A stretch of 64,000 nt of DNA from the NCBI GenBank assembly GCA_948443845.1, contig CAOJUE010000006.1, forward strand, positions 8,720 to 72,719, given 5' to 3'. A program made the position numbers and the translations under genes. Origin of the DNA: an uncultured Eubacteriales bacterium. Lineage in GTDB: Bacteria > Bacillota > Clostridia > TANB77 > CAG-508. The notes under the pieces are model-generated. The model searched no databases. It worked only from the letters and a program-made list of their open reading frames with translations, and was not told the origin of the DNA. This document shows, piece after piece, positions 20,758-24,865 of the stretch; position 1 is the stretch's first letter, and every line of letters starts with the position of its first letter.

Positions 20758-20790
20758 ATTTATTTTACGCCACGATTTTCAAAAAAGAGA

Positions 20791-20922
20791 GAAAAATGAC
20801 CCAAATTTACATAAAATCAATACAGAATACCAAATTTTGCATTCTAGAGGCATAAAAAGGCATAGTATCAGAAAAATGACTTTTTAAAGTGATGCACTAG
20901 AATGTCCAAAACACGACTTTTT
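20791..20922 (+). repeat. dispersed intergenic repeat, copy 1
   Basis: GAAAAATGACCCAAATTTACATAAAAT...CTAGAATGTCCAAAACACGACTTTTT. Aligns by eye with 51488-51619 (+) and 61201-61331 (-). Confidence 0.6.
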
Positions 20923-21049
20923 CCAATTAAGTATACATAAATATTATGAAAAATTAAAATGTCTTAAAATGCATTTTAGCTGCTTTCTGGAAGACATCAG
21001 AAATTTTGAGTTGGAAAAGGAAAATTTAAAGAAAAATTATAAAAAATTC

Positions 21050-21077
21050 TTGACAAATTAAAAAAAAAGTATATAAT
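21050..21077 (+). promoter_or_regulatory. sigma-A promoter for a short plus-strand RNA
   Basis: TTGACA (21050-21055), 16-nt spacer, TATAAT (21072-21077). Confidence 0.55.
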
Positions 21078-21083
21078 AAAAAT

Positions 21084-21156
21084 AATATATAAAATATATT
21101 AAAAATTTTGTTAACGACATAAAAAATAGGTAGTGTTGCAGCACTACCTATTTTTA
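21084..21156 (+). ncRNA. candidate antitoxin sRNA (about 70 nt)
   Basis: Runs from the promoter at 21050-21077 to the terminator at 21124-21153. Carries TTTTGTTAACGACATAA (21106-21122), 16/17 identical to 21261-21277. It is therefore complementary to the start-codon region of the convergent small-ORF mRNA. Confidence 0.4.
21124..21153. terminator. bidirectional rho-independent terminator
   Basis: AAATAGGTAGTG-TTGCAG-CACTACCTATTT, a 12-bp perfect stem, with an A-run on the left and a T-run on the right. Confidence 0.8.
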
Positions 21157-21158
21157 TG

Positions 21159-21275
21159 TTAAAAACCGAAAGCTTCACGAAGTAGTTTGATAAACTTCAA
21201 AACGCCAGTTAGAAGTTTCAACAATTTATGTAATCGGTATTTAAGCATTTTCTTTTGTTTTTTTGCTAACGACAT
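21159..21275 (-). CDS. 38-aa cationic amphipathic peptide (type I toxin candidate)
   Basis: Not in the ORF track because it is under 60 aa. RBS GGAGGTGAGG (21290-21281) lies 5 nt upstream of the ATG at 21275. Sequence: MSLAKKQKKMLKYRLHKLLKLLTGVLKFIKLLREAFGF. The terminator follows directly. Confidence 0.5.
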   Translation of the reverse strand: MSLAKKQKKMLKYRLHKLLKLLTGVLKFIKLLREAFGF

Positions 21276-21372
21276 AATAGCCTCACCTCCTTTCAAAGGG
21301 GAATGTTATTATGTCTTTTGTTTGGAAATCTTGCTTTTGGATAAAAGCAATTAGACAAAATAAATTTTTCTT

Positions 21373-21401
21373 ATTATAGCACGAGAAATGTTGTATTGCA
21401 A
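21373..21401 (-). promoter_or_regulatory. promoter for the small-ORF mRNA
   Basis: On the minus strand: TTGCAA (21401-21396), 17 nt, TATAAT (21378-21373). Gives a 5'UTR of about 90 nt. Confidence 0.45.
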
Positions 21402-21508
21402 TAGGAAAATATTAAAAAATAATTTTTTGTAAAATCATCAAAAAAACGATTGACAAAAGAACGAATGTTTGATAAAATATTACTATTAAAAAAGAAAGGA
21501 ACAGAGTT

Positions 21509-21973
21509 ATGCTAGAAAAACTAAATGATAAATATGTGTTTTTTGATGTAGATGGAACATTATCGGAATATCGCTATAATGACCATGTTAGTGGAGGAAA
21601 CGATTGGGGCGGACAAACGTGGGAAGAATTGTTTTTTGGGAATGTTTTTGTTAAGAATCGCCCTTTAAAAACAATGGTTAATTTAATTGAGCAACTAGAT
21701 TCAGATAAAGTTTTTGTATTGGGTGCTATCACAACCAGTCATGAAATTGATGAAAAATACGAATGGCTTGCGAAATATTATCCTTCCATTAAAAGAGAAA
21801 ATATCATTTTTGTAGCAGACTCCTCTTTGAAGGTAATTGCGCTTGAGCAATATGCGAAAAAATTAAATATTCCAAAAGAAAAGATTGTTTTTATTGATGA
21901 TAAACACGCTACCATAAGACAAACAGAGGAAGCAGGCTTTAAGTCGTATCATACAACATCTTTTGTCGAATAA
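21509..21973 (+). CDS. HAD-superfamily 5'-nucleotidase-like hydrolase
   Basis: FFDVDGTL motif I and IDD motif near the C-terminus, 154 aa. Promoter TTGACA (21450)-17 nt-TAAAAT. Confidence 0.7.
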   Translation: MLEKLNDKYVFFDVDGTLSEYRYNDHVSGGNDWGGQTWEELFFGNVFVKNRPLKTMVNLIEQLDSDKVFVLGAITTSHEIDEKYEWLAKYYPSIKRENIIFVADSSLKVIALEQYAKKLNIPKEKIVFIDDKHATIRQTEEAGFKSYHTTSFVE

Positions 21974-22036
21974 AATTTGACCAAAACAATTCATAACAAA
22001 GAGTTACGAGTATCATTTAAAATGAAGGGGGCAAAC

Positions 22037-24865
22037 ATGAACGATGAAATTATTATAAAAGGTGCAAAAGAACATAATTTGAAAAATATCAATATCAAAA
22101 TTCCCAAAGATAAATTAGTTGTTATTACAGGGCTTTCTGGCTCTGGCAAATCTTCTCTTGCGTTTGATACGATTTACGCCGAAGGCCAAAGAAGATATGT
22201 TGAAAGTTTATCTTCGTATGCCAGACAATTCTTAGGAATTATGGAAAAGCCAAATGTAGAATCCATTGATGGACTTTCACCAGCCATTTCTATTGATCAA
22301 AAAACGACTTCTAAAAATCCACGTTCCACTGTTGGAACGGTAACAGAAATTTATGATTATATTCGTTTATTATACGCTAGAATTGGAATTCCCTATTGTC
22401 CAAATTGTGGCGAAAGAATCGAAAAACAAACCATTGACCAAATTGTCGATACGGTTTTAGAACACACAGAAGGAACGAAAATTCAAATTTTAGCACCTGT
22501 TGTGCGTAGCAAAAAAGGAGAATATACGAAACTTTTTGCCAATATGCAAAAAGAAGGATTTGTGCGCGTCAGAATCGATGGCGAGATGTATGAATTAACA
22601 GACGATATCGAATTAGATCGAAACAAAAAACACAACATTGACATTGTGGTTGACCGACTTGTCATTAAAGAAGATATTCGCAATCGTTTGGCAGAATCGG
22701 TTGAAACAGCGATGGCACACGCCAATAATTTGGTAAAAATCGATTTTGTGGGAGAAGGCGAAAAATTATTTAGCGGAAATTATGCTTGCCCAGATTGCAA
22801 TATTAGCTTTGAAGAGTTAACGCCTCGCATGTTTTCTTTCAACAATCCTCTGGGCGCTTGCCCAGAGTGTACAGGAATTGGTTTTTTAATGAGAATGGAT
22901 GAAGATTTAATCCTTCCTGACAAAAATAAAACCTTGTACGATGGAGTAAAAGCCTTTGGCTCGAGCACTATGAAACGTGGTGATACCATGGCAAAGATGT
23001 ATTTTGAAAGTATTGCTAAACATTATGGTGTTGACATCCAAAAGCCAATCAAAAAGTTGCCACGCGAGTTTTTGGATAAAATTTTATATGGCACAGGTGA
23101 CGAAGAAATTGATTTTGAATATACTTCAGCAAGTGGTACTAGGAAATTTACGAGTCCTTTTGAAGGCGTAATTCCTACATTGGACAGGCGTTATCGAGAA
23201 ACGAAATCGGAGGGAATGCGCCGTTTTTATGAGATGTATATGAGTGAAAGTCCTTGCCATTCTTGTCATGGAGCCAGATTGAAAAAAGAAGTTTTGTCTG
23301 TTAAAGTAGGCGATAAAAATATTAATGAATTGACGGATATGCCGATTGGCAAAATCAAGGATTATTTGGCGAATTTGCAATTAACCAAAAAAGAGAAAAT
23401 GATTGCAGAATTGATTTTCAGAGAATTAAATATGAGATTGCAGTTTTTGATTGATGTTGGTTTGGAATATTTGACGCTTTCAAGAAATAGTGGAACCTTG
23501 TCTGGTGGGGAAGCACAGCGTATTCGTTTGGCAACACAAATTGGTTCAGGACTTTCAGGTGTTTTGTATATTTTAGATGAGCCAAGCATTGGACTTCATC
23601 AAAGAGATAATGATAAATTGTTGGAAACCTTGAAAAAATTGCGTGATTTAGGCAATACGCTAATTGTGGTAGAACATGATGAAGACACAATGTATGCTGC
23701 AGACCAAATTGTCGATATTGGACCTGGTGCGGGTGTGCATGGTGGAAATGTGGTAGCGCAGGGAACTGCTGAAGAAATCAAACTGATAACCGATTCTATT
23801 ACAGGTCAATATTTGAGTGGTAGAAAGAAAATTCAAGTTCCCAAAACACGCAGAAAGAGTGCAAAAGGAAAGTACCTTGAAATTGTGGGGGCAAGTGAGC
23901 ATAATTTGAAAAATGTCAATGTTAAAATCCCATTAGGCGTTTTTAACTGCGTGACTGGTGTTTCGGGTTCTGGAAAATCGACTTTGATTAATGAAATTTT
24001 ATATAAATATTTGGCCAGAGAAATTAATAAATCGAATGAAAAACCGGGAAAATGCGAAGAAGTTAAAGGAATTTCGAATATTGATAAAATTATTAATATT
24101 GACCAATCACCAATTGGAAGAACGCCACGCTCTAATCCAGCAACTTACACAGGGGTTTTTGATATCATTCGTGATATTTATGCAGGTACAAATGAGGCAA
24201 AAATGCGTGGTTATCAAAAGGGAAGATTTAGTTTTAATGTTTCAGGTGGACGTTGTGAGGCGTGCCAAGGAGACGGTGTTGTGAAAATTGAAATGAATTT
24301 CTTGCCAGATATTTATGTGCCTTGTGAAGTTTGTAATGGAAAGCGTTATAATCGAGAAACATTGGAGGTCAAATATAAGGGAAAATCCATTTCAGATGTA
24401 CTTAATATGACAGTGGAAGAAGCATTGGAATTTTTCAGCAATATTCCACGCATCAAAGATAAAATTCAGACTTTGGCTGATGTAGGGTTGGGCTATATTA
24501 AACTTGGGCAACCTTCTACAACACTTTCTGGTGGGGAAGCACAGCGTGTGAAATTGGCAACAGAATTATCCAAAAGAGCGACTGGAAAAACATTGTACAT
24601 TTTAGATGAGCCAACCACAGGACTTCATATAGGAGATGTTCATAAATTGATTGATATTTTACAAAGATTAGTTGACACAGGAAATACGATTGTTGTCATT
24701 GAGCATAATTTAGATTTAATCAAAACCGCTGACCATATTATTGATTTGGGTCCAGAAGGTGGTGATGATGGTGGACAAGTAATTGCAATCGGAACGCCAG
24801 AGCAGATTGTGAAGAATGAGAAATCGTATACGGGGAAATTTTTGAGGAAATATTTGGAGAATTAA
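22037..24865 (+). CDS. uvrA: excinuclease ABC subunit A
   Basis: [18 protein letters not shown]..., two [12 protein letters not shown] / [10 protein letters not shown] Walker A motifs, and zinc fingers CPDC...CPEC and CEAC...CEVC. Confidence 0.95.

Follow-up and report, generated by a model that had tools for sequence, protein, structure and literature searches.

The window analysed here, a stretch of 64,000 nucleotides (nt) from an uncultured Eubacteriales bacterium (GenBank assembly GCA_948443845.1, contig CAOJUE010000006.1, positions 8,720 to 72,719), contains at positions 21050 to 21401 a cassette of about 350 nt in which two promoters face each other. Here, we focus on this cassette, whose layout resembles that of type I toxin-antitoxin loci: an open reading frame (ORF) for a peptide of 38 amino acids (aa) lies on the minus strand, a predicted antisense small RNA (sRNA) lies on the plus strand, and both transcripts would end at one common terminator (table 1). 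In the window, the gene order is ABC exporter, cassette, HAD-family hydrolase, uvrA. The ends of both transcripts are predicted from promoter and terminator. The original prediction, made from the letters of the window, had proposed a TTGACA-16-TATAAT promoter and a TTGCAA-17-TATAAT promoter in convergent orientation, and both are present at those positions and conserved.

The comparison covers five diverged lineages of uncultured Clostridia, namely the window together with L011 (same species), L013, L014, L023 and L042, whose peptides are 66-82% identical. All five keep both promoters, the common terminator, a strong Shine-Dalgarno (SD) sequence and the 38-codon ORF. In the alignment, the -35 box of the sRNA promoter is invariant, whereas its -10 box is TATCAT in L023 and TATAAT in the other four lineages; the mRNA promoter is kept in the homologues as well.

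Table 1. Predicted features of the cassette, in window coordinates.
Feature	Position	Strand	Basis or remark
sRNA (antitoxin) promoter, TTGACA-16-TATAAT	21050..21077	+	12/12 consensus matches
Predicted antisense sRNA, ~75 nt	21084..21158	+	fold -20.7 kcal/mol, z = -5.87
Direct-repeat copy in sRNA, anti-start, UUUUGUUAACGACAUAA	21106..21122	+	repeat search
Predicted toxin mRNA, ~245 nt	21118..21366	-	fold -60.5 kcal/mol, z = -5.05 against shuffled controls
Bidirectional intrinsic terminator hairpin, common to both RNAs	21122..21155	both	inverted-repeat search
ORF, 38 codons + stop, MSLAKKQKKMLKYRLHKLLKLLTGVLKFIKLLREAFGF	21159..21275	-	read from sequence; stop codon 21159-21161
Direct-repeat copy in mRNA, sRNA target (UU-AUG + codons 2-5)	21261..21277	-	repeat search
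mRNA 5' stem-loop, GACAUAAUA with UAUUAUGUC across AUG	21271..21315	-	inverted repeat, fold, consensus structure
Shine-Dalgarno sequence, GAAAGGAGGUGA, 12 nt	21283..21294	-	read from sequence
Conserved hairpin near mRNA 5' end, UUGCUUUU-AUCC-AAAAGCAA	21331..21350	-	folds; retained in the L022 remnant too
Toxin mRNA promoter, TTGCAA-17-TGcTATAAT	21373..21401	-	10/12 matches + TG extension

A short direct repeat has one copy in the sRNA and the other across the start codon of the mRNA. A 16/17 repeat forming a 17-bp duplex over the AUG had been proposed, and it is there: the two copies are identical at 16 of 17 positions, and the duplex has an energy of -21.2 kcal/mol, which none of 500 shuffles reaches. 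The repeat differs from lineage to lineage (GUUAACGAC in the window, GUAAAUAAC in L013, GUUAAUAGC in L014, GUUAGUAAC in L023 and GUUAAUGAC in L042), and in every case the copies in sRNA and mRNA have changed in concert. Counting 17 proposed pairs in six distinct sequences gives 102 cells, and standard pairs fill all 102; compensatory double changes are found at 6 of the 17 pairs, and the observed paired fraction or covariation score is reached by 0 of 500 shuffles. In slid controls, where the partner is moved by one to three columns, 31-53% of cells pair. Every one of the six single-sided differences yields G-U, and none yields A-C or another mismatch. Transitions being half of substitutions, about one quarter of single changes should give G-U, and by our own estimate six out of six would arise about 2 times in 10,000. 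Because all six single-sided changes give G-U, selection on RNA pairing is indicated, and not mere gene conversion between DNA repeats; the covariation argues for a 17-nt sRNA-mRNA pairing under selection at the RNA level. Cognate duplexes range from -20 to -24 kcal/mol (energies reached by at most 1 of 500 shuffles) and non-cognate combinations from -9 to -18 kcal/mol. In homologous loci the complementarity of the repeats is both conserved and co-varying.

The start-codon duplex is favourable at the energy given above; co-folding of the two RNAs with RNAcofold shows a terminator duplex only. The 3' ends of sRNA and mRNA are fully complementary over about 35 nt and are paired by RNAcofold over 35 bp; this site and the start-codon site cross, and the program is unable to show them together.

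The shared hairpin had been described as a perfect 12-bp bidirectional terminator. A hairpin is indeed present, but it is not perfect: the stem has 11 Watson-Crick pairs and one G-U pair, and is extended by A-U pairs. Its arms (21122-21138 and 21139-21155) are 17 nt each and 94% complementary around the core GGTAGTG/CACTACC, and because it stands between an A-tract and a T-tract, it should be able to terminate transcription in both directions. Across the aligned lineages the stem is invariant and the loop variable. When metagenomes were scanned for the stem of the terminator (AATAGGTAGTG...CACTACCTATT), eight unrelated contigs (L034-L041) came up with the hairpin only and neither peptide nor cassette, so the presence of this hairpin is not enough to recognise a cassette. 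The predicted sRNA that ends in this hairpin begins with an AU hairpin (21084-21100), followed by the single-stranded anti-start segment and an A-rich spacer. This layout is kept in the homologues, the 5' AU-rich hairpin (which shows no conservation of sequence) being missing in L013 alone; the anti-start segment has a mean unpaired probability of 0.5-0.8, and the spacer varies in length.

The mRNA is translationally closed, its SD and AUG being masked by a conserved fold. Pairing between the 5' untranslated region (UTR) and the start codon had been predicted, and an inverted repeat spanning the start codon is indeed there (21268-21279 with 21307-21318); the resulting stem encloses a hairpin between the SD and an anti-SD sequence. 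In the folded mRNA of all five lineages, the unpaired probability is 0.00-0.01 for the AUG and 0.03-0.23 for the SD, which is itself almost invariant (GGAGGAGA in L023). The consensus structure retains three elements: a hairpin near the 5' end, a CAUAAUA-UAUUAUG stem-loop around the anti-SD/SD hairpin, with one compensatory A-U to G-C change in its stem, and the terminator. Every minimum-energy fold has the extreme 5' end of the mRNA paired. Its partners differ among lineages and no such helix appears in the consensus structure, so a counterpart to the 'upstream helix' of par RNA I is no more than a possibility.

The ORF runs from 21275 to 21159 with 11 basic residues (K/R) and one acidic residue (E), as the original prediction read it, and it is exactly 38 codons long in all five lineages despite indels in the flanking non-coding DNA. 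Pairwise ratios of non-synonymous to synonymous substitution (dN/dS) are 0.08-0.36 at dS 0.5-1.0, and variable columns fall on codon positions 1, 2 and 3 in the numbers 11, 8 and 23; this substitution pattern marks the ORF as a real gene under purifying selection. Gene callers use an upstream TTG start, giving a 45-aa form. This start was rejected in favour of the AUG because the TTG lies within the SD and, on our reading of the alignment, is out of frame in L013.

By prediction the peptide forms a long amphipathic helix of cationic character, in contrast to a hydrophobic membrane anchor. AlphaFold2, run on a shallow three-sequence alignment, gives one continuous helix over residues 3-36 with a mean pLDDT (predicted local distance difference test) of 88. 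Net charge is +7 to +11 across the lineages, and both Trp and Pro are absent. The comparator peptides were Fst, PepA1, TisB, Hok, AapA1, melittin, PSM-alpha3 and enterocin L50A. The longest uncharged run is 5-9 residues compared with 15-21 for Fst, PepA1 and Hok, and the best 19-residue Kyte-Doolittle mean is 0.7-1.7 compared with 2.2-2.5 for Fst, PepA1, TisB and Hok, which agrees with the earlier statement that the usual hydrophobic transmembrane (TM) segment is lacking. The 18-residue hydrophobic moment (0.53-0.72) is similar to that of melittin, PSM-alpha3 or enterocin L50A. Conservation of the peptide is lowest at the N-terminal residues 2-5, and it is the same codons that must co-vary with the sRNA.

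Relatives were found via the neighbouring HAD-family hydrolase, which gave ten contigs of the window's species (L001-L010) and twelve loci from uncultured Clostridia or Clostridium sp. genome bins (L011-L022). Among these, tblastn and blastn picked out complete cassettes of conserved architecture in L011, L013 and L014; in L022 they detected a remnant. A phmmer search of 1.84 billion representatives returned two clusters only (P0001 and P0002); a search with P0002 added one further variant, and look-ups of P0001, P0002 and P0003 gave loci L023-L033 and L042. No match was found in a word-indexed search of 5.8-billion protein clusters with the 45-aa form, nor in an exact look-up of the 38-aa window peptide in a large protein collection, and of 600 candidates from a metagenome scan with peptide patterns none was confirmed.

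The orientation of the cassette relative to its neighbours is constant and its position is not, so that with the window there are four gene contexts: L013 has the order ABC, HAD, cassette, uvrA; L014-type loci and L042 have carB, cassette, ABC, HAD; and in L023 the cassette lies between an unknown gene and the start of a uvrA-like gene. Homology between lineages begins at the sRNA -35 box and stops at the mRNA -35 box, running slightly past the latter where the uvrA-side promoter accompanies the cassette. Judged by its occurrence in four gene contexts, the module is autonomous. These comparisons also bear on a chance origin, in which promoter-like hexamers in an AT-rich spacer, the terminator of the ABC gene and a spurious short ORF would have come together by accident. 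Promoter-like sites in the spacer number 13 against 6.6 expected, and the terminator stem recurs in unrelated contigs that lack the peptide; but the module is kept in five lineages and four contexts, its dN/dS is below 0.4 and its pairing co-varies, and on this conservation, dN/dS and covariation we reject such an origin as extremely improbable.

The peptide gene has been lost at least in part on two occasions. In L007, from the window's species, a 176-nt deletion (21185-21360) has removed the SD, the 5' UTR and most of the ORF, approximately 30 codons from its start, and retains the sRNA gene, the terminator and both promoters; this allele is seen in a single contig, and an assembly artefact is possible. 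In L022 (1143-1257) the remnant consists of the terminator and the 5' UTR hairpin only. As two independent losses, these alleles indicate that the peptide ORF is dispensable.

Within the window's species there are two haplotypes. The second (L001, L003, L005, L006, L008 and L010) has an extra TAAAAAAT at 21119/21120, which sits in the sRNA spacer, as in other lineages. It also carries C21266T, by which the repeat becomes a full 17/17 match and Thr takes the place of Ala4, and T21191G, by which Leu replaces Ile29. Between the haplotypes, substitutions are far fewer in the cassette (21150-21400) than in the spacer at 20760-21000.

The peptide might instead be a non-toxic small basic protein, for example one binding nucleic acid, the ribosome or a membrane protein, with the antisense RNA tuning its level; the locus would then be a common small gene under cis-antisense regulation and no toxin-antitoxin pair. 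It is unusually basic (net +7 to +11) and without a TM domain, and the locus, present once on the chromosome, passes on vertically within one neighbourhood, all of which would suit such a protein. We nevertheless think this unlikely. Translation is blocked three times over, by pairing of the SD, by pairing of the AUG and by a dedicated sRNA directed at the start from a stronger promoter, and because a triple block of this kind is typical of genes whose product normally must not be made (PMC7472228), the same probably applies here. That the ORF has been lost more than once, in one case leaving the sRNA in place, fits a dispensable, costly gene, and a KLLKLL-type amphipathic helix is a classic membrane-active design.

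The nearby ABC gene invites another explanation, namely that the peptide is a secreted leaderless antimicrobial or cytolytic agent, similar to a bacteriocin or a phenol-soluble modulin (PSM), which the ABC half-transporter exports and whose production the antisense RNA times or limits. Leaderless bacteriocins and PSMs are short amphipathic helices that lack a leader; the former are cationic, and their genes often have ABC exporters as neighbours. The peptide is likewise cationic, lacks a signal peptide and is predicted to form one amphipathic helix; in charge, hydrophobic moment and want of a TM segment it is nearer to melittin, enterocin L50A and AapA1 than to Fst or PepA1, and in four of the five lineages no more than one gene separates the cassette from an ABC exporter. 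The accepted type I toxins SprA1 and SprG1 also act on other cells externally (PMC8309996), and the two readings can therefore overlap. The transporter itself, however, is a generic half-transporter without a peptidase domain and with no specific bacteriocin-exporter match above cut-off. It is retained in L007 and L022, where the peptide is deleted, and the L014-type and L042 lineages have it split into two ORFs alongside an intact peptide; the HAD-family hydrolase gene stands between ABC gene and cassette in L013, and the L023 flanks have no ABC gene. Because the exporter is kept without the peptide, split with the peptide intact, separated from it or absent, a functional tie between the two is not indicated, and the suggestion in the original prediction of a leaderless bacteriocin served by the nearby exporter is not supported. 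Moreover, the sRNA alone travels with the cassette and no immunity gene does, the peptide is dissimilar to every bacteriocin family in Pfam, NCBIfam and PDB sequences, and a dedicated convergent antisense RNA and a closed mRNA are not known as features of leaderless bacteriocin or PSM loci, with which there is no homology. No mention of a leaderless bacteriocin alongside toxin-antitoxin systems of type I was found in the literature searched. We regard dedicated secretion as quite improbable, more so than a harmless basic protein.

The split of the ABC gene, found in two related lineages, is itself consistent in many independent contigs (L014 1363-2959, L024-L033 and L042 2185-3793). Two overlapping ORFs, of 88 or 97 aa and of 443-460 or 442 aa, share the same break point, which could reflect a shared frameshift, programmed frameshifting or a two-piece transporter.

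Among known systems, the closest in RNA organisation is par of Enterococcus faecalis pAD1, together with its homologues on chromosomes, with the Fst mRNA (RNA I) and its antitoxin (RNA II). The likeness to par/Fst proposed originally stands for the RNAs and fails for the peptide, which bears no Fst/Ldr signature, and for the number of repeats. Both loci have convergent promoters, a shared terminator with complementary 3' hairpins, and direct-repeat DNA transcribed in opposite directions, so that the sRNA pairs with the translation start (PMC7472228; PMC8594479). In both, an intramolecular 5' stem-loop sequesters the SD (PMC7472228), the mRNA is about 230-245 nt and the sRNA short, and the overlap between the RNAs stops short of the ORF (here, stop codon 21159-21161 and hairpin 21122-21155). 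By contrast, par has two repeats, DRa and DRb, where there is one 17-nt repeat here; its start codon is GUG, where this one is AUG; and a U-turn (YUNR) is seen in the mRNA terminator loop of only two of the five lineages on our reading of the alignment. Antisense RNAs that lie off the ORF and act outside the overlap are represented only by Fst/RNAII and SprA1/SprA1as (PMC8594479). Because the overlap spares the ORF and the pairing falls outside it, at the start, the locus would by its sequence work like par.

In the SprA1/SprA1as system of Staphylococcus aureus, the antisense RNA likewise overlaps the 3' end of the mRNA only and represses through a non-overlapping 5' segment at the ribosome-binding region (PMC8309996; PMC8594479). 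Its toxin, PepA1, has about 30 aa and lytic activity, but is a hydrophobic, membrane-spanning relative of Fst/Ldr with PXXXGC, whereas the peptide here is unrelated and not hydrophobic. The Fst/Ldr signature comprises a TM helix, a conserved Trp, PXXXG and a charged tail (PMC7472228); in the five peptides, TM helix, Trp, P/D/S/TXXXG and acidic or charged tail are all absent, and the peptides are basic along their whole length, so that by sequence they are not members of Fst/Ldr. Nearest in net charge, hydrophobicity and longest uncharged run is AapA1 of Helicobacter pylori, a strongly cationic toxin of 30 aa that forms an amphipathic helix with basic ends (PMC8309996). AapA1/IsoA1 differs in that its antisense RNA lies wholly in the 5' region of the mRNA and overlaps the ORF, in that 3' processing activates the mRNA, and in having no sequence similarity to the peptide.

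We therefore read the stretch of about 350 nt, from one -35 box to the other, as a predicted autonomous chromosomal type I toxin-antitoxin-like module, to which we give a probability of roughly 0.65. Within this explanation our confidence in antisense control is high, and in the 'toxin' part moderate. The best reading is a type I toxin-antitoxin-like locus with par-type control and a predicted toxin family that is new, atypical and narrowly distributed. Several results weigh against it. All membrane-associated type I toxins reviewed have an alpha-helical TM domain (PMC8309996), and hydropathy reveals no hydrophobic TM helix in the peptides of the five lineages. None of the five has a significant match in Pfam, NCBIfam, PADLOC, PHROGs or PDB sequences. 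For the sRNA and mRNA, Rfam gave sub-threshold matches only and no par-type antitoxin model: EF0408_EF0409 scored 11.7 bits against a cut-off of 440, over the terminator only, and RatA 18.6 against 49 bits. Matches to RefA9 (E = 5.2) and Plastid-psbA-4 were dismissed as generic hairpins. The family is narrowly distributed, and features typical of such systems, that is, several copies per genome and carriage on mobile elements, are not seen: each locus holds one copy of the cassette, with none further in the window or other loci by tblastn, blastn or nhmmer profile, and collections of plasmids, phages and viruses gave no cassette match.

Under the toxin-antitoxin reading, the locus would operate in the following manner, with transcription of both RNAs, the order of pairing, toxicity and target drawn by analogy with known systems. 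The mRNA of about 245 nt would be made from a sigma-A-type promoter and be born translationally inert, and the sRNA of about 75 nt, from a stronger, perfect-consensus promoter, would end at the same terminator. The complementary terminator loops would provide the first contact between the two RNAs, as in par (PMC7472228) and SprA1/SprA1as (PMC8309996). Pairing would form next at the translation start, blocking ribosome entry and perhaps inviting cleavage by RNase III. Were the sRNA to drop relative to the mRNA, the peptide would be made and would harm its producer. Most likely it would attach to the anionic cytoplasmic membrane and make it permeable, acting as an amphipathic helix, either surface-active or oligomeric, and not as a classical hydrophobic spanning helix. 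A bolder form of this proposal, which we advance tentatively and consider doubtful, is that the peptide represents a new class of type I toxin, non-spanning and akin to an endogenous cationic antimicrobial, silenced by a par-type RNA lock with an origin separate from the Fst family. Such a toxin would carpet the membrane or form pores in it from the cytoplasmic side, or would be released onto neighbours.

Several further features surround the cassette. An imperfect direct repeat of 36 nt (78% identical) brackets it at 20999-21034 and 21384-21419, the left copy lying immediately upstream of the sRNA -35 box and the right copy overlapping the mRNA -35 box; it could be an insertion or duplication scar, or a chance product of AT-rich DNA. 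The left flank (20758-21049) was considered as a relic of the 3' end of carB, and blastn and tblastx gave this no convincing support. On the other side, the HAD/NT5C-like hydrolase gene ends 3 nt before the start of uvrA (window 21509-24865), which suggests one operon; in relatives, the ABC and uvrA neighbours of the HAD gene are sometimes present and sometimes not. The operon has a promoter of its own, TTGACA-17-TAAAAT (21450-21478), and its promoter block remains beside the cassette in L013 and L023. Between the -35 and -10 boxes lies GAACGAATGTTT (box 21459-21470), which resembles the Firmicute LexA (Cheo) box GAAC-N4-GTTC/T and is the sole GAACN4GTTY match in the window. Because it is some 60 bp upstream of the toxin -35 box, direct control of the predicted toxin by the SOS response through this LexA-like box looks unlikely. 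Elsewhere, tandem repeats occur in a 999-codon ORF (47628-50627), with 2.9 copies of a 126-nt unit and 2.1 copies (92% matches) of a 117-nt unit. The encoded protein is probably repetitive and either secreted or located at the surface; spurious 'LLLYRLH' matches in tblastn came from the antisense frames of this ORF.

The locus suggests that par-type RNA organisation, a shared terminator combined with a start-codon repeat, can control a predicted toxin unrelated to Fst. Type I toxins are usually sought as short hydrophobic ORFs or as homologues of known toxins, and a charged peptide without a TM segment escapes both approaches; gene callers mostly miss such a peptide as well. The five orthogonal, co-varying sRNA-mRNA pairs, in which cognate partners bind 2-15 kcal/mol more strongly than non-cognate ones, could serve as portable translational switches, and the peptide, which comes from an uncultured gut-type lineage of Clostridia, is a candidate scaffold for membrane-active antimicrobials. 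If the reading as a non-spanning toxin is true, it would link type I toxins with peptides similar to leaderless bacteriocins or PSMs, and the par RNA scaffold would be able to serve unrelated cargo.

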